A stretch of 64,000 nt of DNA. Origin: Escherichia coli. GTDB taxonomy: Bacteria > Pseudomonadota > Gammaproteobacteria > Enterobacterales > Enterobacteriaceae. Location: the NCBI RefSeq assembly GCF_002854065.1, contig NZ_CP024147.1; one strand, written 5' to 3'. Within the stretch, counting starts at the first letter, position 1. The number at the start of each line of letters is the position of its first letter. A program made the translations under genes and the position numbers. Positions 11,856 to 52,206 of this stretch are shown piece after piece. The notes below the pieces were generated by a model. The model searched no databases. It was not told where the DNA came from and saw only the letters and a program-made list of their open reading frames with translations.

Positions 11856-12122
11856 ATGCGAGCAGCGTTTTGGGTAGGGTGTGCCGCTTTATTGTTGTCG
11901 GCGTGTAGTAGTGAGCCTGTTCAGCAGGCGACTGCGGCGCACGTAGCGCCAGGTTTAAAAGCGTCGATGTCCAGTAGTGGAGAAGCAAATTGTGCAATGA
12001 TCGGCGGTTCGCTTTCTGTTGCCCGTCAACTGGATGGTACGGCGATTGGGATGTGTGCATTACCCAACGGCAAACGCTGTAGCGAACAGTCACTTGCCGC
12101 CGGGAGCTGTGGCAGCTATTAA
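11856..12122 (+). CDS. ydbJ: Small lipoprotein YdbJ (DUF333)
   Basis: 88-aa ORF with lipobox LLSAC. Confidence 0.8.
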   Translation: MRAAFWVGCAALLLSACSSEPVQQATAAHVAPGLKASMSSSGEANCAMIGGSLSVARQLDGTAIGMCALPNGKRCSEQSLAAGSCGSY

Positions 12123-17001: not shown

Positions 17002-17408
17002 ATTATAGTTGGCTACAAAATGTATCTATTAATGATCTTTTACAGTATTTAAACTGACGTTAGCATGCTTAATTACCGTGGGTATTTCTACAAAAACCTT
17101 ATATATCCTTCCCTTAAATAACAAATCATTACCAATATATATGTAATCACAAAATATATATGCAGCGTCAATGAATTATTAGTGTGTTTTTGTTTTTTGT
17201 CGTTAATTTTTAGATTGAAGTGAGTTTTTTGTGGAATATAATTCCATCAACTGTTTTTTTGTATGCTTTTACTTGCCTGATTTTAATATTGATTTTGTGA
17301 ATTATATAAGCATTTCTTTATTGCTTATTTCACTATGAATATTTACTACGATTTATCTTCAAATTCTGCATGGCTTGTTACGCACGGTCTAGATCTAAGG
17401 AATTTTAT

Positions 17409-20400
17409 ATGCAAAGGAAAAAATTATTGTCTGTTTGTGTTGCCATGGCGTTAAGTAGCCAGACATGGGCTGCGGATACTTCAATACCCGACTCAACCGA
17501 AAAAACACGTAAGTCCAGTAAGATAACATGTCCGGCAAATATTCATTCCCTGAGCAAAGAGCAGCTAGAAAATTTATCCGCGGAGTGCAGAGAAAATAAA
17601 GATAGTGCAGTTTTACCATGGGCAGCTGCAGGTCTTGCTGCAGTAGCTACGGGAATTGCTATATATACCTTAAGTGACGATGACAATCACCACCATAATA
17701 ACTCCCCAGTTCCGGATGATGGCGGTGATACGCCAGTTCCGCCAGACGACGGCGGTGATACGCCGGTTCCGCCAGATGACGGCGGTGATACGCCGGTTCC
17801 GCCAGATGACGGCGGTGATACGCCAGTTCCGCCAGATGACGGCGGTGATACGCCAGTTCCGCCAGATGACGGCGATGATACGCCGGTTCCGCCAGATGAC
17901 GGCGGTGATACGCCAGTTCCGCCAGATGACGGCGGTGATACGCCAGTTCCGCCAGATGACGGCGGTGATACGCCGGTTCCACCAGATGATGGCGGTGATA
18001 CGCCAGTTCCAGACGACGGCGGTGATACGCCTGTTCCGCCAGACGATGGTGGCGATACCCCGGTTAAACACGATCCTGTCGTCTATAAAAATGACGTAAC
18101 CTGGGATCAGGACGCGAAAACCGTCAAAATTCGCGAAACCACCTTTACCTACAGCCAAAATGCCGATGGGAGTTACACCTTAACCGCGCCTGATGGCCTG
18201 ACGACGATAGTCAAGGGCTGGACAGTCCATGACGACAGCAACACCGTCATCTTTGATGGCGTAAATACGGCAGGTGGCATCACCTGGAGCTACGACGATG
18301 ATGGGCTCATCCATATCACTAAAGAGGCCGGTGTCGTTGTTGATGGCACAACCGGAACTGCGATTGATTTTGGTAATGCGATCATCACCGATCAGGGCGG
18401 CAATACGGCGCTGAATGGCGGTACTGTCATGACGGTTGAGGGTGACAACATCACCCTCAACAACGACGGTAAAACGACCGCCATCGGCGAGGGTTCGGTC
18501 GTTGGTATCCTTACTGGTGACGATATCACTATCAATAACAACGGCGAGACGGAAGTTGACGGCGGTACCGCAGTAATCATCAATGGCGATAATGCTACGC
18601 TGAACACTGCGGGCGACTCGACCATCACCAATGGTGGTACGGGTAGCCTTATCAATGGCGATAATGCGCGGGTCGATAATCAAGGTACCATGAGCGTTGA
18701 CGGTGAGAATTCCACTGGCTCGAAAATTGTCGGTGACGGTGCCACCATCAAACAGGAAGGCGACTTATACGTAAGCGGTGGTGCGCACGGTATTGACGTT
18801 GACGGCAATGATACGTTCGTTAGCAACAAAGGTAATATTACGGTCATCGAAGATAACTCTATTGGCATGCTGCTTGATGGTGATGGCGTCAGCGTGATCA
18901 ACATGGGCGACCTCAATGTTGGTCAGGCCGCAGCGGGTGAAAATGCCATTGGCATTCAGATCGACGGTGATAATGCGACATTTGTTAACGTTGGTGATAT
19001 TTCCGCGACCAATGCCGGAACCGGTGTCAGCGTTGCTGGGGATAAAGCTAATATTTCACTCGCGGGTGGGTTAGACGTTGGGGATTTCTCCACCGGTCTT
19101 GATGTCTCTGGCAATAATAACAACATGACGCTGGCGACTTATGAGCTGAATGTGACAGGGCAAAAAGCGACGGGTGTTAATGTTTCGGGTGATGGCAATA
19201 CGATTGAAATCGCAGGCAGCATTCTGGTTGATAAAGATCAGAAAGCCGATAATGCGCAACCTTACTTCTTTAATCCCTCAACCGGCGTAAATATCAGCGG
19301 TAATAACAATGACGTCACGCTGGATGGTCAGTTAACCGTTGTTGCTGATAGCGAAACCACTACGCGTTCCTATGCAAGTTACGACGGTGCTCAGGAGCAC
19401 ATTGCGGGTATTGTTATTGCTGGCGATGACAATACCTTCACGCTTAATGGCGGTGTCCATTTTGTCGGTGAAAAAAATGTCATGGATGATGGCTCAAAAC
19501 CTGCCGCATCTCGTCGTGGTATCGGAGATACACCGCTTATGAGCGTTGATGGGCATTCCTCAGTCTACCTCAATGGTGAGTCAACCATCAGCGGTGAGTT
19601 CCCGCTGGGTTTCGAAAATCTCATTCAACTGAGTAATGGCGCGGAGCTGGAGATTGGCGCTGACGCAACGTTTGATATGAGTGATGTGGATTCTTTCACT
19701 TATTATTATCGTGTAGCGTTATCCACTATTAGTATTGATTATGGTGCGAAGGCGACAAACAACGGTGAAGTGGAACTGAAAAATATCGGTTTTGCGGCTG
19801 CCTGGAATAAAGATTCAACGGTAATCAATAACGGATCCATTGGCCTGGCGATGTACGATTTTGGTACCGACCCGGCACCAAAAGTCTTTGACGTTGAATA
19901 CGGTGGGATTGGCGTTAACAATGGTACCATGACCACCAAAATGATGAATCAGCACAGTGTGCTGAATTATCCGGCAGAGTGGAACTTGTCTGATGGTACC
20001 TCTTTCAATAACAAGGCATTAGGGCTGACAGGTATGCTTGCCAGCTACTCGTCATCCATTCTGAACGGCGAAACGGGCATTATTGATATGTATGGCCGTG
20101 GCAGTGTAGGGATGCTAGCCATCGATAAATCAACCGCGGATAACGAAGGGCAAATCACCCTGGATACGCTGTGGGTTGATGAAAATGATGAAACATCGCT
20201 GCGTAATAATGTTGCAAATAGCACGGCGAAAGATTTCGGTGTGGGAATGGCTTCAGGTACCGATGCCTATAATGGGGCATTAACTAAAGCCACGGCAACC
20301 AACCACGAGAATGGTGTGATTACTGTCTACAACGCCGGTGCGGGGATGGCGGCGTATGGGAATACTAATACGGTCATTAACCAGGGAACCATCAACCTGG

Positions 20401-23273
20401 AGAAAAATGAAAATTACAACGATTCTCTCGGTGTGAATAAACTCGTCGGCATGGCGGTTTATCACGAAGGCACCGCCATTAATGACCAGACAGGCGTAAT
20501 CAACATTAACGCGGAAAATGGTCAGGCATTCTATAACGATGGCACTGGGCTTATTATCAACTATGGCACAATTTGTACCTTTGGCGTTTGCCAGGGGGCC
20601 GATGAATATAATCCAACGGATAATTATATTGCCGATTTATATGATCATGGCGATGTATTAAGTTCTGCGGGTGAGACCGTATTATTATCGTCAGGTGCGA
20701 TTATCAACGGGGATGTCACCAGTGCGGGTGCTGTTAAAAATGGAACGATCAGGATACTCGAAAATGGTGCGCTGGTTAACGAGTCGAGCGGAACCATTAG
20801 CTCAGCCATCGTCGTGAATGAAGGCGGTGCGTTAACCAATGAAGGTGTATTGAACACGGTGACTCTGGAAGGAGGAACCTTCAATAACAACGGAACGCTT
20901 AATGACGTCGTAAAAATTGAGAAAAACAGCAACGCGGTAATTAATAACACCGGTTCCCTGTCAACTTTACAACTTCACGATGGTACGGTGAATAACAGCG
21001 GTATTGCGTCGGCGCGCGTTAACGCTCAGGGCGATGCGGTATTCAATAACCTTGCAGGCGGCGAGGCGCGTAAAGGCGCGATTCTCTATAACTCTGCGGT
21101 AGTGAATAACGCGGGTACCTGGAAAATGGGTTATCAGGATGAAAACAACAATGCCGGGACGCTGGATATTGACGATAAGTCAACGTTCAACAACAGCGGC
21201 AAACTCATCCTTGATAACAGCAAAAACGCCATTCGCTTCCAGGGCAGCAATGCTAACGCCACGTTATATAACACCGGTGAAATGACGCTGGATGCCGCAT
21301 TAGGTGCGGGCGCTATTCACTACGACGATGGCGCCAGCCAGTTTATTAACAAGGGCGTGGTGGATGCGAAAGTCACCGTGGCGGTAAGTACTGCCGGTGC
21401 GACAGAAAGCGATGCCTTCTTGTGGAACCAGGATGGCGGGGTAATTAACTTCGATAAAGACAACGCCAGCGCGGTTAAATTCACCCACAACAACTATGTT
21501 GCTCTCAACGATGGTGTAATGAACATCAGCGGCAACAACGCCGTGGCGATGGAAGGCGATAAAAACGCACAGCTGGTTAACAACGGTGTTATCAATCTCG
21601 GTACCGAAGGCACCACCGATACCGGATTGACTGGTATGCAACTGGATGCCAATGCCACCGCCGATGCGGTAATTGAGAACAACGGCACGATCAATATTTT
21701 TGCTAACGACTCGTTTGCGTTCAGCGTACTGGGCACAGAAGGTCATATCGTTAACAACGGTACGGTGGTGATTGCCGACGGCGTGACTGGTTCGGGGTTG
21801 ATTAAGCAGGGCGACAGCGTGAATGTGGAAGGGGTGAACGGCAACAGCGGTAACAATACCGAAGTGCATTACACCGACTACACGTTGCCGGACATGCCAA
21901 GCTCTTACACCACTTCACCTTTCAGTGAAACGACTGATAGCGGTAGTAGCGATGGCAGCAGTAACAATCTTAACGGCTATATCGTCGGTACCAACGTTGA
22001 TGGCAGCGCCGGTAAACTGAAGGTCAACAACGCCAGCATGAATGGTGTCGGGATCAACACCGGTTTCGCCGCCGGTACGGCAGACACCACGGTCAGTTTC
22101 GACAACGTGGTGGAAGGCATCAACCTGACCGACGCCGATGCCATCACCTCAACGTCCGTGGTATGGACCGCCAAAGGCAGCACCGATGCCAGCGGCAACG
22201 TTGACGTCATCATGAGCAAAAACGCCTACACCGATGTGGCGACCGATGCTTCGGTGAACGATGTGGCGAAGGTACTGGATGCGGGTTACACCAATAACGA
22301 GCTGTATACCAGCCTGAACGTGGGCACCACTGCTGAACTGAATAGCGCCCTGAAGCAGGTGAGCGGTAGCCAGGCGACCACGGTATTCCGTGAAGCGCGT
22401 GTGTTAAGCAACCGCTTCAGCATGCTGGCGGATGCCGCGCCGAAGGTGGGTAACGGTCTGGCGTTCAACGTTGTTGCGAAAGGCGATCCACGTGCCGAGT
22501 TAGGTAATAATACCGAATACGACATGCTGGCATTGCGTAAAACCATCGACCTGAGCGAAAGCCAGACGATGAGTCTGGAGTACGGTATCGCTCGTCTCGA
22601 TGGTGATGGTGCGCAGAAAGCGGGTGGTAATGGCGTCACAGGTGGTTATAGCCAGTTCTTTGGCCTGAAACATCAGATGTCCTTCGACAACGGCATGAAC
22701 TGGAATAACGCATTGCGTTATGACGTTCACAACCTTGACAGTAGCCGTTCGATTGCATTTAGCAACACAAACAAAACGGCTGATACCGACGTGAAGCAGC
22801 AGTACCTGGAGTTCCGCAGCGAAGGGGCGAAGACTTTCGAACCGAGCGAAGGACTGAAGGTTACGCCATATGCGGGTGTAAAACTGCGTCACTCGCTGGA
22901 AGGCGGCTATCAGGAGCGCAATGCCGGAGACTTTAACCTGAGCATGAACAGCGGCAGCGAAACGGCGGTGGACAGCATCGTCGGGCTGAAACTGGACTAC
23001 GCAGGGAAAGGCGGCTGGAGCGCGAATGCGACGCTGGAAGGCGGGCCGAACCTGAGCTACAGCAAGAGCCAGCGCACGGCAAGCCTTGCAGGGGCAGGCA
23101 GCCAGCACTTTAACGTCGATGACGGTCAGAAGGGCGGCGGTATCAACAGCCTGGCGAGCGTCGGCGTGAAGTACAGTAGCAAAGAAAGTTCGCTGAATCT
23201 GGATGCGTATCACTGGAAAGAGGACGGCATCAGCGACAAAGGCGTGATGCTGAACTTTAAGAAAACGTTCTAA
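17409..23273 (+). CDS. ydbA: Autotransporter (type Va) adhesin-like protein YdbA, apparently intact
   Basis: About 1954 aa: signal peptide MQRKKLLSVCVAMALSSQTWA, PPDDGGDTPV tandem repeats, long Gly/Asn/Thr-rich beta-helix passenger, C-terminal beta-barrel ending ...MLNFKKTF. Confidence 0.85.
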   Translation: MQRKKLLSVCVAMALSSQTWAADTSIPDSTEKTRKSSKITCPANIHSLSKEQLENLSAECRENKDSAVLPWAAAGLAAVATGIAIYTLSDDDNHHHNNSPVPDDGGDTPVPPDDGGDTPVPPDDGGDTPVPPDDGGDTPVPPDDGGDTPVPPDDGDDTPVPPDDGGDTPVPPDDGGDTPVPPDDGGDTPVPPDDGGDTPVPDDGGDTPVPPDDGGDTPVKHDPVVYKNDVTWDQDAKTVKIRETTFTYSQNADGSYTLTAPDGLTTIVKGWTVHDDSNTVIFDGVNTAGGITWSYDDDGLIHITKEAGVVVDGTTGTAIDFGNAIITDQGGNTALNGGTVMTVEGDNITLNNDGKTTAIGEGSVVGILTGDDITINNNGETEVDGGTAVIINGDNATLNTAGDSTITNGGTGSLINGDNARVDNQGTMSVDGENSTGSKIVGDGATIKQEGDLYVSGGAHGIDVDGNDTFVSNKGNITVIEDNSIGMLLDGDGVSVINMGDLNVGQAAAGENAIGIQIDGDNATFVNVGDISATNAGTGVSVAGDKANISLAGGLDVGDFSTGLDVSGNNNNMTLATYELNVTGQKATGVNVSGDGNTIEIAGSILVDKDQKADNAQPYFFNPSTGVNISGNNNDVTLDGQLTVVADSETTTRSYASYDGAQEHIAGIVIAGDDNTFTLNGGVHFVGEKNVMDDGSKPAASRRGIGDTPLMSVDGHSSVYLNGESTISGEFPLGFENLIQLSNGAELEIGADATFDMSDVDSFTYYYRVALSTISIDYGAKATNNGEVELKNIGFAAAWNKDSTVINNGSIGLAMYDFGTDPAPKVFDVEYGGIGVNNGTMTTKMMNQHSVLNYPAEWNLSDGTSFNNKALGLTGMLASYSSSILNGETGIIDMYGRGSVGMLAIDKSTADNEGQITLDTLWVDENDETSLRNNVANSTAKDFGVGMASGTDAYNGALTKATATNHENGVITVYNAGAGMAAYGNTNTVINQGTINLEKNENYNDSLGVNKLVGMAVYHEGTAINDQTGVININAENGQAFYNDGTGLIINYGTICTFGVCQGADEYNPTDNYIADLYDHGDVLSSAGETVLLSSGAIINGDVTSAGAVKNGTIRILENGALVNESSGTISSAIVVNEGGALTNEGVLNTVTLEGGTFNNNGTLNDVVKIEKNSNAVINNTGSLSTLQLHDGTVNNSGIASARVNAQGDAVFNNLAGGEARKGAILYNSAVVNNAGTWKMGYQDENNNAGTLDIDDKSTFNNSGKLILDNSKNAIRFQGSNANATLYNTGEMTLDAALGAGAIHYDDGASQFINKGVVDAKVTVAVSTAGATESDAFLWNQDGGVINFDKDNASAVKFTHNNYVALNDGVMNISGNNAVAMEGDKNAQLVNNGVINLGTEGTTDTGLTGMQLDANATADAVIENNGTINIFANDSFAFSVLGTEGHIVNNGTVVIADGVTGSGLIKQGDSVNVEGVNGNSGNNTEVHYTDYTLPDMPSSYTTSPFSETTDSGSSDGSSNNLNGYIVGTNVDGSAGKLKVNNASMNGVGINTGFAAGTADTTVSFDNVVEGINLTDADAITSTSVVWTAKGSTDASGNVDVIMSKNAYTDVATDASVNDVAKVLDAGYTNNELYTSLNVGTTAELNSALKQVSGSQATTVFREARVLSNRFSMLADAAPKVGNGLAFNVVAKGDPRAELGNNTEYDMLALRKTIDLSESQTMSLEYGIARLDGDGAQKAGGNGVTGGYSQFFGLKHQMSFDNGMNWNNALRYDVHNLDSSRSIAFSNTNKTADTDVKQQYLEFRSEGAKTFEPSEGLKVTPYAGVKLRHSLEGGYQERNAGDFNLSMNSGSETAVDSIVGLKLDYAGKGGWSANATLEGGPNLSYSKSQRTASLAGAGSQHFNVDDGQKGGGINSLASVGVKYSSKESSLNLDAYHWKEDGISDKGVMLNFKKTF
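17706..18064 (+). repeat. About 12 tandem copies of a 30-bp repeat (one 27-bp unit) encoding PPDDGGDTPV within ydbA
   Basis: Near-identical head-to-tail units GATGACGGCGGTGATACGCCAGTTCCGCCA with occasional wobble changes; one unit encodes GDDTPV. The mirror-image ORFs in the track here are repeat artefacts. Confidence 0.9.
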
Positions 23274-23294
23274 TTTTTAGCATGTGATACACAA

Positions 23295-23326
23295 ACCGCA
23301 ACGCTGATACAGGTTGCGGTTTTTTA
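23295..23326 (+). terminator. Rho-independent terminator downstream of ydbA
   Basis: ACCGCAAC...GTTGCGGT hairpin followed by TTTTT; a partial REP-like GCCGGATGCGACGC follows. Confidence 0.8.
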
Positions 23327-23492
23327 TTGCCGGATGCGACGCTTGACTTATCTTTTGCTGTCTAATGTTTTGGTGTCTTTCAGGACAATAGTGCTACTCA
23401 TCCAGAAATCTTGTTTACGCCTTCGCATTATTTATCTCTTTTCGTTTCTATACTGATTTTTCTTAATCCGTTTTATTACAGGGCAGGGTGCG

Positions 23493-24353
23493 ATGAGCAG
23501 CAATACATTTACTCTCGGTACAAAATCCGTTAACCGTCTTGGTTATGGCGCGATGCAACTGGCAGGTCCTGGGGTTTTTGGCCCCCCAAGAGATCGCCAC
23601 GTCGCTATAACTGTGCTGCGCGAGGCGCTGGCATTGGGCGTCAATCACATTGATACCAGCGACTTTTATGGTCCGCACGTCACCAATCAGATTATCCGCG
23701 AAGCGCTTTATCCTTACTCTGACGACCTGACAATTGTCACTAAAATTGGTGCGCGGCGTGGAGAGGACGCTTCCTGGTTGCCCGCCTTTTCTCCGGCAGA
23801 GCTGCAAAAAGCGGTACACGATAATCTACGTAATCTCGGCCTGGACGTACTGGATGTGGTTAACCTGCGCGTGATGATGGGGGATGGTCATGGCCCGGCG
23901 GAAGGATCGATTGAAGCCAGCCTGACCGTGCTGGCAGAGATGCAACAACAAGGCCTGGTAAAACATATTGGCCTAAGCAACGTCACACCGACGCAGGTTG
24001 CAGAGGCGCGCAAGATTGCCGAAATCGTCTGTGTGCAGAACGAATACAACATTGCTCATCGTGCTGATGACGCAATGATTGAAGCTTTGGCTCGTGACGG
24101 CATTGCCTACGTGCCGTTCTTTCCGCTCGGGGGCTTTACGCCGCTGCAATCTTCCACGCTTTCCGATGTTGCTGCGAGCTTGGGTGCAACACCAATGCAG
24201 GTGGCGCTGGCGTGGCTGTTACAACGTTCACCGAATATTTTGCTGATCCCAGGGACGTCTTCTGTTGCGCATTTACGGGAGAATATGGCTGCTGAAAAAT
24301 TGCATCTTTCTGAGGAAGTGTTGTCTACGTTGGATGGTATTTCGCGAGAATAA
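23493..24353 (+). CDS. pdxI: Aldo-keto reductase, pyridoxine 4-dehydrogenase PdxI (YdbC)
   Basis: 286-aa ORF with AKR-family motifs (IDTSDFYG, GLSNV). Confidence 0.88.
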   Translation: MSSNTFTLGTKSVNRLGYGAMQLAGPGVFGPPRDRHVAITVLREALALGVNHIDTSDFYGPHVTNQIIREALYPYSDDLTIVTKIGARRGEDASWLPAFSPAELQKAVHDNLRNLGLDVLDVVNLRVMMGDGHGPAEGSIEASLTVLAEMQQQGLVKHIGLSNVTPTQVAEARKIAEIVCVQNEYNIAHRADDAMIEALARDGIAYVPFFPLGGFTPLQSSTLSDVAASLGATPMQVALAWLLQRSPNILLIPGTSSVAHLRENMAAEKLHLSEEVLSTLDGISRE

Positions 24354-24362
24354 CGAATATAC

Positions 24363-24399
24363 AAAAGGGAAAGATGCATTTCCCTTTTGTTTCTTTTTT
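24363..24399 (+). terminator. Rho-independent terminator downstream of pdxI
   Basis: AAAAGGGAAA...TTCCCTTTT hairpin followed by a T-rich run. Confidence 0.75.
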
Positions 24400-24416
24400 A
24401 ATGGCATGGAGTGCAT

Positions 24417-25715
24417 ATGTTTAAGCCCAGGATTTGCAGCTGGATAGGTTTACTTCCCCTGTTTATGCTGAGTCTTCCAGTACAGGCGGAACTTCGATGC
24501 GTTGCAAATGCAGTTGATATTGAACCTTTTTTTTCTGCGGCTACCGCTGAAGATAAACAACAAGTTGAACAAGCTATCAACAGTAGCGTGAATCTTGTCC
24601 CCTTCGGTTTATCTGCATCGGACTGGAAAGTGCATCGTGGCGATTTAGTGGTAGAAGGTAATATAGAGAGTAATCAAAAATTGATTGTTCTTGGCAATTT
24701 GACAGTCAAAGGTAATATTTCCACTTTCTCTCTTTCTAATCCATGGGTTATTCTCGGTAACGTGACGGCAACGAATATAGTTACGGATTCACCACTGTTA
24801 ATTACCGGTTCGATAAATGCAAGTGGACTGGTATTTATCGACTCATATTACGATAATCCGTCTACGATTAAGGGGAGTATTAATGCGCGCGGGATATTTA
24901 TCAATGACATAATTGCACCTGTTGTTGCGTCTTCGACAAATAGTGAATTCATGGTCCGTGCGAGTGACAAAAATGACACTGAAAATGTCAAAAAAGCGCT
25001 GATGATAATAAATCCTGATGCATATTATTGGGGTCTAATAAATGATGAAGATGCTCTGAAAGAAATTTTTAAGCGAAGCAATATTCGCATGGCAGGGAAT
25101 GTCTGTAATCAGATGAAAAAAGAAGCGCTGTTTCGCCCTAAGCCTTCTCCTGAGTTAGTGCAGGAATTGCAAATGCTGGATGAAGGCAACGTTGCTGCAT
25201 TTGAAGGACGAGATATTGCGACATTTGATCTTGCCATAATGCGAACTCTCCCAAGGCTTAAAGGAATTTCAGCTAACCTACGCAAACAACTTATTAATAG
25301 CAATGATGGACAAACGATTGCAAGTATGGCGAGATATATGCCTGACAATGAGATTCTGGAGTTGACCGATCAGCAATTGGGTTACCAGCCTGTTGTTCTG
25401 GGGTTGCTCGACCGTGAACCGCTCTCTGTCGAAATAATGACGCGAATGAGTCATCTACCTGATGGTGTCGGTCCGTTGAATCTTGCGCTACGTGAAAATC
25501 TCCCTCTGGATATCGTCATGACTCTGGCGAAAAGAGATTGGGATATGATCATTCAGGAGCTTTATAAAGATGCGTGGTTATTGCCCGAATCCATTATTGA
25601 TGGCTATATCCGCAGTGATGATTCCTCTATTCGTCAGGTCGGTGCTGGAGGACAACTCACCTACAATCAGGCAATGCAGTTGGCGAACGATTCATCAAAC
25701 GATGTTGTCACAAGC
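24417..25715 (+). pseudogene. ydbD: ydbD N-terminal fragment (disrupted by IS1)
   Basis: Signal-peptide ORF MFKPRICSWIGLLPLFMLSLPVQA... runs into IS1 at 25716 and stops 27 nt inside it; the two halves total about 770 codons, matching the K-12 YdbD length as I recall it. Confidence 0.8.
25707..25715. repeat. Left 9-bp target-site duplication GTCACAAGC of IS1 copy 2
   Basis: Identical 9-mer immediately flanks both ends of the IS1 (25707..25715 and 26484..26492). Confidence 0.9.
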
Positions 25716-25770
25716 GGTGATGCTGCCAACTTACTGATTTAGTGTATGATGGTGTTTTTGAGGTGCTCCA

Positions 25771-26046
25771 GTGGCTTCTGTTTCTATCAGCTGTCCCTCC
25801 TGTTCAGCTACTGACGGGGTGGTGCGTAACGGCAAAAGCACTGCCGGACATCAGCGCTATCTCTGCTCTCACTGCCGTAAAACATGGCAACTGCAGTTCA
25901 CTTACACCGCTTCTCAACCCGGTACGCACCAGAAAATCATTGATATGGCCATGAATGGCGTTGGATGCCGGGCAACCGCCCGCATTATGGGCGTTGGCCT
26001 CAACACGATTTTCCGCCATTTAAAAAACTCAGGCCGCAGTCGGTAA
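25771..26046 (+). CDS. insA: IS1 InsA
   Basis: 91-aa ORF identical to insA of copy 1. Confidence 0.93.
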
Positions 26047-26468
26047 CCTCGCGCATACAGCCGGGCAGTGACGTCATCGTCTGCGCGGAAATGGACGAAC
26101 AGTGGGGATACGTCGGGGCTAAATCGCGCCAGCGCTGGCTGTTTTACGCGTATGACAGTCTCCGGAAGACGGTTGTTGCGCACGTATTCGGTGAACGCAC
26201 TATGGCGACGCTGGGGCGTCTTATGAGCCTGCTGTCACCCTTTGACGTGGTGATATGGATGACGGATGGCTGGCCGCTGTATGAATCCCGCCTGAAGGGA
26301 AAGCTGCACGTAATCAGCAAGCGATATACGCAGCGAATTGAGCGGCATAACCTGAATCTGAGGCAGCACCTGGCACGGCTGGGACGGAAGTCGCTGTCGT
26401 TCTCAAAATCGGTGGAGCTGCATGACAAAGTCATCGGGCATTATCTGAACATAAAACACTATCAATAA
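25965..26468 (+). CDS. insB: IS1 InsB reading frame (InsAB' by -1 frameshift)
   Basis: 167-aa ORF; differs from copy 1 by one residue (S vs R). Confidence 0.9.
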
Positions 26469-26483
26469 GTTGGAGTCATTACC

Positions 26484-41972: not shown

Positions 41973-42122
<150 letters not shown>

Positions 42123-45338: not shown

Positions 45339-46682
45339 ATGGCGAACAGCATCACGGCGGATGAGATTCGGGAACAGTTTTCGCAGGCAATGTCAGCCAT
45401 GTACCAGCAAGAAGTTCCGCAATATGGCACGCTGCTGGAACTGGTAGCTGATGTGAATCTGGCTGTGCTGGAAAACAATCCTCAACTGCACGAAAAAATG
45501 GTAAATGCAGACGAGCTGGCGCGACTGAATGTTGAACGTCATGGGGCGATTCGCGTTGGGACTGCACAAGAGCTTGCTACTCTTCGGCGGATGTTTGCCA
45601 TTATGGGGATGTACCCGGTGAGCTATTACGATCTCTCGCAGGCAGGGGTGCCGGTACATTCGACAGCATTTCGGCCCATTGATGATTCTTCTCTGGCGCG
45701 TAATCCCTTCCGCGTTTTTACCTCCTTACTCCGCCTTGAGCTTATCGAGGACGAAATTTTGCGCCAGAAAGCGGCGGAGATTCTGCGTCAGCGCGATATC
45801 TTCACCCCACGTTGTCGACAACTGTTAGAGGAGTATGACCAGCGGGGCGGTTTTAACGAAACACAGGCACAGGAGTTTGTGCAGGAAGCCCTGGAAACGT
45901 TTCGCTGGCACCAGTCAGCAACGGTAGATGAAGAAACCTATCGCGCCTTGCACAACGAACATCGGTTGATTGCTGATGTGGTCTGTTTTCCTGGATGCCA
46001 TATCAACCATCTGACGCCACGTACGCTGGATATTGACCGGGTGCAGTCGATGATGCCTGAATGCGGAATTGAACCAAAAATTCTGATCGAAGGGCCGCCG
46101 CGCCGCGAGGTACCGATTTTACTACGCCAGACCAGCTTTAAAGCACTGGAAGAGACGGTGTTGTTTGCGGGGCAGAAACAGGGCACGCATACTGCGCGCT
46201 TTGGTGAAATTGAGCAGCGTGGCGTGGCATTAACGCCGAAAGGGCGACAACTGTATGATGATCTTCTGCGTAACGCTGGAACCGGGCAGGATAATCTCAC
46301 TCACCAAATGCATTTACAGGAAACCTTCCGCACTTTTCCTGACAGTGAGTTTTTAATGCGTCAGCAAGGGCTGGCATGGTTCCGGTACCGTCTGACGCCT
46401 TCAGGTGAGGCGCATCGTCAGGCGATTCATCCCGGAGACGATCCACAGCCCTTAATTGAACGTGGTTGGGTCGCGGCGCAACCCATTACCTATGAAGATT
46501 TCTTGCCCGTTAGCGCGGCGGGGATCTTCCAGTCAAATCTGGGTAATGAAACGCAGGCGCGCAGCCACGGTAATGCCAGTCGCGAAGCATTTGAGCAGGC
46601 GTTGGGTTGTCCGGTTTTGGATGAGTTCCAGCTTTATCAGGAAGCGGAAGAACGCAGTAAACGTCGCTGTGGTTTGCTTTAA
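45339..46682 (+). CDS. ydcJ: DUF1338-family protein YdcJ
   Basis: 447-aa ORF divergent from ydcI. Confidence 0.82.
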   Translation: MANSITADEIREQFSQAMSAMYQQEVPQYGTLLELVADVNLAVLENNPQLHEKMVNADELARLNVERHGAIRVGTAQELATLRRMFAIMGMYPVSYYDLSQAGVPVHSTAFRPIDDSSLARNPFRVFTSLLRLELIEDEILRQKAAEILRQRDIFTPRCRQLLEEYDQRGGFNETQAQEFVQEALETFRWHQSATVDEETYRALHNEHRLIADVVCFPGCHINHLTPRTLDIDRVQSMMPECGIEPKILIEGPPRREVPILLRQTSFKALEETVLFAGQKQGTHTARFGEIEQRGVALTPKGRQLYDDLLRNAGTGQDNLTHQMHLQETFRTFPDSEFLMRQQGLAWFRYRLTPSGEAHRQAIHPGDDPQPLIERGWVAAQPITYEDFLPVSAAGIFQSNLGNETQARSHGNASREAFEQALGCPVLDEFQLYQEAEERSKRRCGLL

Positions 46683-46906
46683 ATTCTGACCATCCGCCTT
46701 TGCAAAAATTTGCCTGATTTTACAAACGAATCAGGCTCATCCCATCGACATAAAAAAATTCCCGATTTATGCATATTCTCTCAGTTCAACAATTGGATTA
46801 TTAATAAATATTGTCTAGAGTGAGCGGTCATAAATAAGCACTTTCTTGCCGCTGAAAACGACCAGCGCGGGACCATTCACAACACCAGAAGGACTCACTT
46901 TCAGGT

Positions 46907-48562
46907 ATGGATCGTAGACGATTTATTAAAGGTTCAATGGCTATGGCCGCCGTGTGCGGTACCAGCGGCATTGCTTCTCTTTTTTCTCAGGCGGCATTCG
47001 CGGCAGATTCTGATATTGCCGACGGGCAAACCCAGCGTTTTGACTTCTCCATTCTTCAGTCAATGGCGCATGACTTAGCGCAAACAGCGTGGCGTGGTGC
47101 GCCTCGTCCGTTACCTGACACTCTGGCGACAATGACGCCGCAGGCTTATAACAGTATTCAATACGACGCCGAGAAATCGCTCTGGCATAACGTTGAGAAC
47201 CGTCAACTGGACGCTCAGTTCTTCCATATGGGAATGGGATTCCGTCGCCGCGTTCGTATGTTTTCTGTAGATCCAGCAACACATCTGGCGCGTGAAATTC
47301 ACTTTCGCCCGGAGTTGTTCAAATACAACGATGCAGGTGTTGATACCAAACAATTAGAAGGGCAAAGCGATCTCGGCTTTGCCGGTTTTCGCGTGTTTAA
47401 AGCCCCCGAACTGGCGCGCCGTGATGTAGTATCATTCCTCGGCGCGAGTTATTTCCGCGCCGTTGATGATACATATCAATACGGTTTGTCGGCCCGCGGC
47501 CTGGCGATCGACACTTACACCGACAGTAAAGAAGAGTTCCCCGACTTTACCGCCTTCTGGTTTGATACGGTAAAACCGGGGGCAACTACCTTTACCGTTT
47601 ATGCGTTGCTCGATAGTGCCAGCATTACTGGTGCCTATAAGTTCACTATCCATTGTGAGAAAAGTCAGGTGATTATGGATGTGGAAAATCACCTGTATGC
47701 GCGCAAAGACATTAAACAGCTGGGCATTGCGCCGATGACCAGTATGTTCAGCTGCGGTACTAATGAACGTCGGATGTGCGACACCATTCATCCGCAAATT
47801 CATGACTCTGATCGTCTGTCCATGTGGCGGGGCAACGGCGAGTGGATTTGCCGTCCGCTGAATAATCCGCAAAAATTGCAGTTCAATGCTTACACCGACA
47901 ACAACCCGAAAGGGTTTGGTTTATTGCAACTGGATCGTGACTTCTCCCATTATCAGGACATTATGGGCTGGTATAACAAACGCCCAAGTCTGTGGGTGGA
48001 ACCGCGTAACAAGTGGGGTAAGGGCACCATCGGCCTGATGGAAATCCCAACAACGGGCGAAACGCTGGATAACATTGTCTGCTTCTGGCAGCCAGAAAAA
48101 GCTGTAAAGGCGGGTGATGAGTTTGCATTCCAGTATCGTCTGTACTGGAGTGCGCAACCGCCTGTTCATTGCCCATTAGCGCGCGTTATGGCGACGCGTA
48201 CCGGCATGGGCGGTTTCCCGGAAGGTTGGGCGCCAGGTGAACACTATCCCGAAAAATGGGCGCGTCGTTTTGCCGTCGATTTCGTTGGTGGTGATCTGAA
48301 AGCTGCCGCACCAAAAGGCATTGAGCCGGTGATTACGCTTTCCAGTGGGGAAGCGAAGCAAATCGAAATTCTTTATATTGAACCCATTGATGGTTATCGT
48401 ATTCAGTTTGACTGGTATCCGACGTCGGACTCCACTGATCCGGTCGATATGCGGATGTATCTGCGTTGTCAGGGCGACGCTATCAGTGAAACATGGCTGT
48501 ATCAGTATTTCCCGCCAGCGCCGGATAAACGTCAGTATGTTGACGACCGCGTGATGAGTTAA
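46907..48562 (+). CDS. opgD: Glucans biosynthesis protein D (periplasmic, Tat-exported)
   Basis: 551-aa ORF with twin-arginine signal [16 protein letters not shown]...AFA. Confidence 0.92.
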
Positions 48563-48701
48563 TCGTTTTTTCTTCGGCACCTTCTTCGGGAGGTGCCGTC
48601 TGGTTAAACACGATCCCGCTCGCATTTTTCCCTAAGTTAAATGAGTAATCTGATGGTGTGTATTTCAGATACACCTTGTCAGCCACTAACAGGGAGTGCG
48701 T

Positions 48702-48926
48702 ATGTTTCCAGAATATCGAGATTTAATATCCCGTCTGAAAAACGAAAATCCTCGCTTTATGTCCTTGTTCGATAAACACAATAAACTTGATCATGAAATT
48801 GCCAGAAAGGAAGGTTCCGACGGTCGAGGGTACAATGCGGAAGTGGTCCGCATGAAAAAACAAAAGCTACAGTTAAAAGATGAGATGCTCAAAATCCTGC
48901 AGCAGGAGAGCGTCAAAGAGGTGTAA
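48702..48926 (+). CDS. ydcH: Small DUF465-family protein YdcH
   Basis: 74 aa from MFPEYRDLISRLKNENPRF... Confidence 0.8.
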   Translation: MFPEYRDLISRLKNENPRFMSLFDKHNKLDHEIARKEGSDGRGYNAEVVRMKKQKLQLKDEMLKILQQESVKEV

Positions 48927-48933
48927 ACTTTCC

Positions 48934-48958
48934 TAAGCCGCCAGCCAGGCGGCTTTTT
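48934..48958 (+). terminator. Rho-independent terminator downstream of ydcH
   Basis: AAGCCGCC-agccag-GCGGCTT hairpin followed by TTTTTT. Confidence 0.8.
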
Positions 48959-48985
48959 TAACAACTGCATGGATTGACTGGAGAT

Positions 48986-49525
48986 AAGATGACTGAAACG
49001 ATAAAAGTAAGCGAATCACTTGAATTACATGCTGTTGCAGAAAATCACGTCACTCCTCTTTATCAGTTAATCTGTAAAAATAAAACCTGGTTACAGCAGT
49101 CGCTAAACTGGCCGCAGTTCGTTCAGAGTGAAGAGGACACGCGAAAAACGGTGCAGGGTAATGTGATGTTGCATCAACGCGGCTATGCCAAAATGTTCAT
49201 GATTTTCAAAGAAGATGAACTTATCGGCGTTATCTCGTTTAATCGTATTGAACCACTGAATAAAACCGCTGAAATAGGCTACTGGCTGGACGAATCTCAT
49301 CAGGGGCAGGGGATCATTTCTCAGGCGCTGCAGGCACTGATTCATCATTACGCCCAGTCTGGTGAACTTAGACGCTTCGTGATCAAATGTCGGGTGGACA
49401 ATCCGCAAAGCAACCAGGTCGCTTTGCGCAATGGTTTTATCCTTGAAGGTTGCCTGAAACAGGCTGAGTTTCTGAATGATGCCTATGATGATGTGAACTT
49501 ATACGCGCGTATTATCGATTCATAA
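48986..49525 (+). CDS. rimL: Ribosomal protein L7/L12 serine N-acetyltransferase
   Basis: 179 aa from [16 protein letters not shown]...; GNAT fold. Confidence 0.88.
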
Positions 49526-50500
49526 TAACCCTGCCAGCGGCGTTCGCGTAATGCGCTCCTCGCCGTTAATGACTTTTGGACCACGGACATGAACCGTGTC
49601 GCCATCAAAGGCTTCAACGACGGCGTGGTCGGTTAACTCCACATGGTTTTCAATTATCACCGCACCTGTAATACGGCTCTCACCTTGTATTACAACCTGC
49701 TCGTCGAGCAGAATCGGTCCACCACGTACCACGGCATTTCCGCCAATCAAGACATGATGTTTTAACACACAATTACCTTCCACAATGGCATATTCCGCCA
49801 CCTGCGAACTGTAATGAATCGTTGGAATGGCATCTTCTTCTATGCCAGCTTTCACCTGCGCGTGACCGTAGACTTTAGCGCAATCGCATAGCCAGACGTT
49901 GTTCTCTTTATTACCTTCAATACTGGCAAAATCAAAAACTTCGGCGCGATGTTCAATAAAAGCATACCGGACGACGGCATCGCCATAAATTTGTGCCTGG
50001 TGGACAATACGCGAGGCGCTAATCCTTGCGCGATCATAAATTTGGAGCAGGAGTTGATGGTCGGGCGTTAAGCCTTGTGCTGCGACGATCATAGAATGTT
50101 GATTAATTAAGGCGTGACCAAATATTCTACATTGCCCGCAAACCAGTGAGTCATGAATGGTGACACTGTCACTTATATATGCACCCTGGCTGATTTCACT
50201 ATTATCGATCCAGACATTATCCGTTGCGTAAACCTCTCCCCACAGCACGCTGGTGCCGGTGATGCGCGTATTACCGGAAATCACCGCTCCGCCGAACGCA
50301 ATAGCATTCTGGTCGTAAATCCAGCAATTTCCTTCCTGTGCTAACACCGTTTCGCGATCGATCCAGCCGCCAGCGGTTCCTGCTATCACATCGTTAAAAT
50401 CGCTCATGGCGATAATCTGCCGTAATAACACACTTTTTTTAGTGCCATCATCCTGATAACTAAAGGCTCGCTGGTCTTCACTTAGACGATATTTGCGCAT
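49520..50500 (-). CDS. ydcK: Hexapeptide-repeat (left-handed beta-helix) protein YdcK
   Basis: 326-aa ORF with repeated [LIV]-G-x4 hexapeptide motifs; 3-prime end overlaps rimL by 6 bp (convergent). Confidence 0.85.
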
Positions 50501-50623
50501 AGCGTTTTCCCACAGGTGACTTACTATAACCGTAGCAAATTCTGCGGCTCTGGCTATGCTCGAGAAAATTCCATAAAATGCATTTCAAATATACTTTATA
50601 AATTAAACAAAATGAGTAAGAAG

Positions 50624-51616
50624 ATGCAGAGCGATAAAGTGCTCAATTTGCCGGCAGGCTACTTTGGTATTGTGTTGGGGACGATAGGAATGGGATTTGC
50701 CTGGCGCTATGCCAGTCAGGTTTGGCAGGTCAGCCACTGGTTAGGGGATGGGCTGGTGATTCTGGCGATGATCATCTGGGGATTATTGACTAGCGCATTT
50801 ATTACCCGACTCATACGCTTTCCGCATAGCGTGCTGGCGGAAGTTCGCCATCCAGTGCTGAGCAGTTTTGTGAGTTTGTTTCCGGCAACGACGATGCTGG
50901 TGGCGATTGGTTTTGTTCCGTGGTTTCGCCCACTGGCGGTGTGCCTGTTCAGTTTTGGTGTCGTGGTTCAGTTGGCTTATGCCGCCTGGCAAACTGCGGG
51001 ATTATGGCGCGGATCTCACCCTGAAGAAGCTACCACGCCTGGACTGTATCTGCCGACAGTTGCCAACAACTTTATCAGCGCAATGGCCTGTGGTGCGTTG
51101 GGCTACACCGACGCCGGTCTGGTGTTTTTAGGCGCAGGCGTTTTCTCATGGCTAAGCCTTGAACCGGTGATCTTGCAGCGTCTGCGCAGTTCGGGAGAAT
51201 TACCCACGGCACTGCGGACATCTCTCGGCATTCAACTCGCTCCTGCGCTGGTGGCCTGTAGTGCCTGGCTGAGCGTCAACGGCGGCGAGGGTGACACGCT
51301 GGCGAAAATGCTTTTCGGTTATGGACTGCTGCAACTGCTGTTTATGCTACGTCTGATGCCATGGTATCTCTCCCAGCCATTTAATGCTTCATTCTGGAGT
51401 TTCTCGTTCGGCGTATCTGCACTGGCAACCACCGGTTTGCATCTGGGGAGTGGCAGCGATAATGGATTTTTCCATACGCTGGCGGTGCCGCTGTTTATCT
51501 TTACCAATTTTATTATTGCAATACTGCTCATCCGTACTTTTGCGCTTCTGATGCAGGGAAAATTGTTAGTCAGAACCGAGCGCGCCGTTTTAATGAAAGC
51601 AGAGGACAAAGAATGA
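50624..51616 (+). CDS. tehA: Tellurite resistance protein TehA (ion channel/efflux family)
   Basis: 330 aa from [30 protein letters not shown]; ten-TM protein. Confidence 0.9.
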
Positions 51617-52206
51617 TTATTCGTGACGAAAACTATTTTACTGATAAATATGAATTAACCCGCACACACTCTGAAGTACTGGAAGCGGTGAAAGTGGTTA
51701 AACCGGGTAAAACGCTGGATCTGGGCTGTGGCAATGGTCGTAACAGTCTTTACCTGGCAGCCAATGGTTATGATGTTGACGCATGGGATAAAAATGCCAT
51801 GAGTATCGCCAACGTCGAGCGCATTAAATCTATTGAAAATCTGGATAATTTACACACTCGGGTCGTTGATCTGAATAACCTCACATTTGCTGGACAGTAC
51901 GATTTTATTCTTTCGACTGTGGTGCTGATGTTCCTTGAGGCTAAAACCATCCCAGGGCTGATTGCTAATATGCAACGTTGCACTAAACCTGGCGGTTACA
52001 ACCTGATTGTGGCGGCGATGGATACCGCTGATTATCCATGTACCGTCGGCTTCCCGTTTGCCTTCAAAGAGGGAGAATTACGTCGATATTACGAAGGCTG
52101 GGAGAGGGTGAAATACAATGAAGACGTCGGCGAGCTGCACCGCACCGACGCCAACGGTAATCGTATTAAACTGCGTTTCGCCACGATGCTGGCACGTAAA
52201 AAATGA
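51613..52206 (+). CDS. tehB: Tellurite methyltransferase TehB (SAM-dependent)
   Basis: 197-aa ORF with methyltransferase motif [11 protein letters not shown]; 4-bp overlap with the tehA stop. Confidence 0.92.

Follow-up and report, generated by a model that had tools for sequence, protein, structure and literature searches.

The convergent rimL and ydcK genes of Escherichia coli share a 6-bp coding overlap in what is probably an ordinary tail-to-tail junction

Within the stretch of E. coli DNA analyzed here (64,000 nucleotides, referred to as the window), the convergent genes rimL and ydcK overlap by 6 bp at their 3' ends. The reading that we favor, with a probability of roughly three in four, is that this is an ancient and ordinary tail-to-tail junction, which has been compacted to a coding overlap, possesses no terminator element of its own, and is neutral. 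The overlap, both genes, and the transcriptional read-through between them are already known. At most, the locus may serve as a textbook case of convergent genes that have no intergenic DNA and are terminated by Rho acting inside the partner gene, and it matters little otherwise.

RESULTS AND DISCUSSION

Genes at the rimL-ydcK junction

Of 5426 complete E. coli genomes, 5412 have a match to a 2-kb region around the junction. This region is 100% identical to the corresponding region of two strains and covers ydcH, rimL, and ydcK. The RefSeq coordinates were taken from a strain showing 100% identity to the window over 48600-50600, and they coincide with those of the window from 25716 onward. The genes of the neighborhood are as follows:

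46907-48562, plus strand: opgD (RefSeq)
48702-48926, plus strand: ydcH (RefSeq)
48989-49525, plus strand: rimL, ribosomal protein L7/L12-serine N-acetyltransferase, 178 aa here (ORF list, RefSeq)
49520-50500, minus strand: ydcK, YdcK family left-handed beta-helix/beta-solenoid protein, putative acyltransferase, 326 aa (RefSeq, Pfam)
beyond ydcK, plus strand: tehA and tehB (RefSeq)

RimL matches the Pfam family Acetyltransf_3 (GNAT family; E 9e-23), and it can be aligned over its full length (residues 1-178) with 1Z9U, the solved structure of Salmonella RimL (E 1e-80). Likewise, YdcK matches the Pfam B_solenoid_ydck and LbH (left-handed beta-helix) families, and all but its last residue (1-325 of 326) can be aligned with 2F9C, the solved structure of Salmonella YdcK (E 1e-142). 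In addition, the protein lengths are steady, with YdcK having 326 aa in Escherichia, Citrobacter, and Salmonella and RimL ranging from 178 to 181 aa. Judged from these matches, rimL and ydcK are genuine protein-coding genes on opposite strands. The mechanically called rimL ORF begins with a TTG at 48974, and the annotated start is the ATG at 48989, which is preceded by GGAG at 48980-48983 and agrees with the solved Salmonella protein from residue 1.

Geometry of the overlap

The sequence across the junction reads ATC GAT TCA TAA TAA CCC. On the plus strand, rimL ends with Ile-Asp-Ser-stop, its TAA occupying 49523-49525, and on the minus strand ydcK ends with GGG TTA TTA TGA (Gly-Leu-Leu-stop), its TGA being the complement of 49520-49522. 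Both 3' ends, stop codons included, share the following stretch:

49520-49525, no strand assigned: 6-bp shared stretch TCATAA, containing both stops, with the codons in register (phase 123:321) (sequence, RefSeq)

Each stop codon is the complement of the last sense codon of the partner (i.e., Ser178 TCA against TGA, and Leu326 TTA against TAA). The 6-bp convergent overlap had been proposed by the first-pass annotation of this DNA, and both the sequence and the RefSeq coordinates bear it out. The same annotation had described the two stop codons as nested, which is wrong, as TGA and TAA are adjacent and lie side by side within the hexamer.

It could be argued that such an overlap is an annotation artefact, with the end of one gene miscalled and rimL and ydcK not truly overlapping. 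Gene callers sometimes produce short overlaps, and mechanical ORF calls can mislead, as illustrated by the extension of rimL to the upstream TTG at 48974. However, the stop codons leave a gene caller no choice, the alignments with the solved Salmonella orthologues reach to within one residue of both C-termini, the lengths of both proteins are conserved, and a 31-mer carrying the junction allele of the window (T, described below) is present in 1924 genomes. An artefact is therefore next to inconceivable, and as far as the letters themselves can tell, this reading is already refuted.

Two alleles of the junction in E. coli

In E. coli K-12 MG1655, the annotation gives a RimL of 179 aa and an overlap of 9 bp. 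Alignment with K-12 revealed a sole difference at the junction, namely a C-to-T change at 49523, which converts the RimL codon CAA (Gln179) to TAA, removes the last residue, and shortens the overlap from 9 to 6 bp. The same change is synonymous in YdcK (Leu TTG to TTA). The two features that distinguish the allele are as follows:

49523, plus strand: T, in place of the C of K-12 and all other Escherichia species (alignment with K-12)
49526-49528, plus strand: ancestral rimL stop TAA, now the second in-frame stop (tandem TAA TAA) (sequence, K-12 alignment)

Since six other Escherichia lineages, including E. albertii and E. whittamii, all read TCA CAA TAA or TCA CAA TAG at this position, the 9-bp form is ancestral, and the comparison marks the 6-bp overlap as a derived allele, produced from the ancestral form by a single C-to-T change. 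To count the alleles, we used 31-mers centered on the variant, so that only an identical allele can seed a match. The T allele (6-bp overlap) occurs in 1924 (35%) and the C allele (9-bp overlap) in 3363 (62%) of the 5426 complete E. coli genomes. The T allele, which is a nonsense polymorphism of RimL with loss of Gln179, is carried by O157:H7 strains, among others. The junction illustrates how a point mutation can shift a stop codon and take 3 bp off a 9-bp overlap while leaving the partner protein unchanged.

The junction in other Enterobacteriaceae

A YdcK search of genome contigs matched only Escherichia, and the more distant junctions were obtained by protein searches and contig look-ups. 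In two Citrobacter species, whose YdcK is 67% and 70% identical to the query, rimL and ydcK overlap by 9 bp (TCA GAA TAA and TCA GAG TGA), and in Salmonella (65% identity) they overlap by 4 bp (TTAA). Three further loci reach lower identities, with a 7-bp overlap at 48% YdcK identity (L016), a 4-bp overlap (CTAA) at 38% (L017), and a 1-nt gap in Mangrovibacter at 39% (L018). In all three of them (3/3), ydcK converges on a RimL-like GNAT gene, and at L016 the gene on the other side of ydcK has changed and the junction is still tight. Collectively, these alignments show that a tight junction, ranging from a 9-bp overlap to a 1-nt gap, persists across the Enterobacteriaceae, and that its exact length and phase are not preserved.

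We also assessed nucleotide conservation in 8 Escherichia sequences and found none in excess at the junction, where the fraction of invariant columns (0.58-0.67) compares with 0.50-0.80 along both genes. By this measure, nothing is visible at the junction beyond coding constraint.

A YdcK-like protein of Aeromonas was dropped as a comparison locus; it is 29% identical and belongs to a Mu-like prophage without rimL. This protein (L019 and L020, 2501-3511) is a YdcK-like beta-helix protein of 336 aa encoded beside tail and capsid genes. Separately, on a Salmonella enterica contig (L010, 3478-4034; SRR36017089), rimL is called as fragments of 70 and 95 aa, compared with 179 aa for the full protein, and ydcK is intact; this rimL is probably a pseudogene.

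Transcription termination around the junction

A pattern scan found no intrinsic terminator near the junction, and no Rfam family matched within 46000-52000 at E values up to 1. The RNAs that begin shortly before either stop codon and extend into the neighboring gene (181 and 186 nt) fold no better than shuffled sequences (z -0.66 and -1.29, respectively). Nor does the gene boundary carry a bidirectional intrinsic terminator, as there is no GC-rich stem flanked by A and U tracts. Three candidate structures, namely a stem at 49536-49567 (plus strand), an 11-bp stem at 49406-49428 (minus strand), and a palindrome at 49501-49512, were rejected for having no U tract directly after the stem or for not being conserved.

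These results bear on a mechanism of convergent termination for which a general description is available (bioRxiv 10.1101/2022.10.23.513370). As for many convergent E. coli pairs, head-on collision of polymerases might end both transcripts at a bidirectional hairpin terminator placed on the gene boundary. The rimL-ydcK pair has the arrangement that this calls for, being convergent with zero spacing, and the 12-nt palindrome ATACGCGCGTAT lies close by at 49501-49512. However, the palindrome is lost in other Escherichia species and encodes Leu-Tyr-Ala-Arg of RimL, the GC-rich stem with an A tract on one side and a U tract on the other is missing, and both downstream RNAs fold like their shuffles. 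Moreover, the termination on record at this locus is sensitive to bicyclomycin. Taken together, a collision terminator is very improbable here.

The recorded termination comes from Adams et al. (2021; PMC7815308, Supplementary file 2), who place a region of Rho termination on the plus strand of MG1655 at 1499587, antisense to ydcK. Without bicyclomycin, reads drop from 82 upstream of it to 20 downstream, whereas the corresponding numbers with the drug are 137 and 144 (Rho score 4.31, p 1.5e-8). The K-12 rimL stop codon ends at 1499477, which places the Rho region 110 nt into ydcK, and by alignment it maps to ~49638 in the window. That study compares 800-nt windows and gives positions near processed ends, so this location is approximate, and the K-12 result is transferred to the present strain by alignment. 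In K-12, then, a Rho-dependent terminator inside ydcK cuts the read-through from rimL approximately 4-fold (from 82 to 20 reads). The Term-seq table of the same study contains no 3' end within rimL or ydcK on either strand, the Rho region being the only entry. The first-pass annotation had held that the overlap leaves no room for terminators, which fails in principle, because convergent genes that overlap have their terminators within the coding sequence of the partner (PMC2174442); in the K-12 data, a Rho region inside ydcK serves rimL.

The composition of the RNA is in keeping with this assignment. The C/G ratio is 1.3 directly past the rimL stop and higher in the stretch that follows, which gives the C-rich, G-poor RNA expected of a Rho terminator:

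49630-49811, plus strand: C-rich, G-poor RNA past the rimL stop, antisense to the 3' part of ydcK (C/G 2.0-2.3 in 78-nt windows)

This C/G bias is partly general for RNA antisense to G-rich coding strands (the C/G ratio of ydcK in the sense direction is 0.76). On the minus strand, the ratio is 1.5-1.7 in the first 100 nt of RNA past the ydcK stop. At the Rho sites described by Adams et al. (PMC7815308), coverage falls in a bicyclomycin-sensitive manner at more than 50 nt beyond a stop codon, on C-rich, G-poor antisense RNA, and the rimL site is alike. It is one of the 1078 regions of that study and does not differ from them, and the antisense class to which it belongs is the largest there (51.5%).

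With these data, our preferred account of an ordinary, neutral junction can be spelled out. According to the published K-12 data, RNA polymerase leaving rimL runs on into ydcK in antisense; once ribosomes have come off at the rimL stop, Rho ends transcription on the C-rich, G-poor RNA ~110 nt past that stop. Transcripts of ydcK would presumably end likewise inside the 3' part of rimL, because no hairpin is present and the C/G ratio is 1.5-1.7 in the first 100 nt. The overlap itself would owe its persistence to deletion bias and to there being no element that needs intergenic space, and selection for regulation would play no part. Interference between sense and antisense RNA, if any, would then be a small side effect that Rho holds in check.

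An intrinsic terminator does occur farther upstream, between ydcH and rimL:

48935-48959, plus strand: intrinsic terminator, AAGCCGCC-AGCCA-GGCGGCUU followed by a U run (fold -14.6 kcal/mol, z -3.9)

This hairpin, which the pattern scan mentioned above missed, lies ~30 nt ahead of the rimL start. Given the strength of the terminator, rimL needs either read-through or an unmapped promoter. The Term-seq data of Adams et al. (PMC7815308) place a 3' end at K-12 position 1498877 (~48928), just past the ydcH stop and upstream of the hairpin.

Read-through and possible antisense interference

Given that there is no intergenic DNA, each mRNA must hold sequence complementary to its partner. Moreover, a functional mRNA cannot end before the overlap, since it is there that both stop codons are found. 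The first-pass annotation had predicted that the two genes are read into each other, and this mutual read-through finds support in the K-12 Rho region inside ydcK (PMC7815308) and in an excludon listing based on RNA-seq (PMC12288877). In the latter, Sanmartin et al. (2025; ExcludonFinder, Table 1) include rimL-ydcK among 165 convergent excludons of MG1655. To qualify, a pair must have transcription units, as delimited by read coverage, that overlap in no fewer than half of 58 stranded RNA-seq sets, and overlapping transcription units are what is reported for rimL-ydcK in K-12. From this method, we infer that the call is near-automatic for pairs with overlapping coding ends once both genes are expressed. 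Four other pairs of the window, ydbJ-hslJ, yncP-hokB, trg-ydcI, and rlhA-yncJ, are on the same list.

The term needs to be read with some care. The excludon concept comprises mutual exclusion and processing by RNase III, whereas rimL-ydcK is known by overlapping transcription alone. In addition, the MG1655 entry refers to the 9-bp allele, whereas the allele of the present strain is the 6-bp one. Taken together, excludon pairs are less co-expressed in single cells and more syntenic, and the double-stranded-RNA check with p19 failed for convergent pairs (PMC12288877). The class-level figures for mutual exclusion and synteny are not evidence for rimL-ydcK itself.

A pair for which more has been demonstrated is mscL-arfA of E. 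coli, in which antisense control and RNase III cleavage were established and the arfA mRNA is an RNase III substrate (Morra et al. 2023; PMC10070815). Like rimL-ydcK, mscL-arfA lies tail to tail in Enterobacterales and has complementary 3' ends, and its coding ends overlap in some species. Antisense control and RNase III cleavage are features of mscL-arfA, with which rimL-ydcK is compared by arrangement. Our literature search found no functional study of the rimL-ydcK pair, and antisense interference between the two genes, as suggested by the first-pass annotation, is a possibility.

In its fullest form, this possibility would make rimL-ydcK a functional convergent excludon, in which transcribing one gene represses its partner and the overlap is retained for that reason, so that RimL and YdcK are mutually exclusive. 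Repression would come about when polymerases collide or when RNase III cuts the paired 3' ends, and Rho would determine how far the antisense effect extends. The pair does appear among the 165 convergent excludons, a class with lower single-cell co-expression and higher synteny, its tight junction is conserved across the Enterobacteriaceae, and mscL-arfA provides a tested E. coli precedent. On the other hand, the coverage-based call would be near-automatic, and the other two overlapping pairs of the window are listed too; the p19 check failed for convergent pairs, and our literature search found no reciprocal expression specific to rimL-ydcK. Furthermore, Rho removes about three-quarters of the plus-strand signal past the junction, which shows no extra nucleotide conservation, and no particular pairing of the 3' ends is preserved, given that overlap length and phase vary by genus (9, 7, 6, and 4 bp, and a 1-nt gap). 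We therefore consider a functional excludon unlikely. A somewhat longer shot is the version in which the junction has been held between a 9-bp overlap and a 1-nt gap, down to 38% YdcK identity, as a working excludon with Rho-limited antisense RNA and exclusive use of RimL and YdcK.

Were a working excludon to be real, it would imply a functional link between RimL, which acetylates L12, and the uncharacterized YdcK. Mutual regulation would then provide an initial hint at what YdcK does and reveal a new level at which L7/L12 acetylation is controlled. What speaks for mutual regulation in our data is conserved gene order and nothing beyond it.

The neutral account that we prefer has observations to contend with as well. 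The junction remains within -9 to +1 nt even at 38% YdcK identity and, at L016, with a changed neighbor of ydcK, and this constancy might result from selection for coupling and not from a neutral ratchet. The presence of rimL-ydcK in a published excludon list also counts against it.

Frequency of convergent overlaps

Nine junctions are convergent in those annotated parts of the window that run collinear with the annotated strain, and three of the nine overlap. Besides rimL-ydcK, these are as follows:

12119-12122: ydbJ-hslJ convergent coding overlap, 4 bp (RefSeq annotation)
41973-41995: yncP-hokB convergent coding overlap, 23 bp (RefSeq annotation)

For E. coli as a whole, the number of convergent overlaps was put at 58 in an analysis by Lillo and Krakauer (2007; PMC2174442). 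Rho-independent terminators were found for only 20% of the genes in convergent overlaps, and the terminators of overlapping convergent genes were located within the coding sequence of the partner. Among overlaps longer than 4 bp, the in-register phase made up 32%, compared with the 34% expected from stop-codon mutation, and phase frequencies agreed with this null model.

The rimL-ydcK overlap resembles the ones in that analysis in consisting of a few opposite-strand bases that hold both stop codons, whose complements are Leu and Ser codons. Its origin also fits stop-codon mutation, and its terminators must sit inside the partner gene. The commonest overlap in that study is 4 bp (TTAA, CTAA, etc.), the form found in Salmonella and at L017, whereas here it is 6 bp, in register, and derived from 9 bp; otherwise, there is no substantial difference. 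Thus, the rimL-ydcK overlap is not unusual and represents an ordinary tail-to-tail arrangement.

Elsewhere in the window, there are two IS1 copies, at 748-1516 and 25715-26483. Strain CUWW06, which is otherwise collinear, lacks a segment of ~8.4 kb corresponding to 17318-25715 of the window, and the window strain and CUWW06 differ by IS-associated rearrangements upstream of ynbA.
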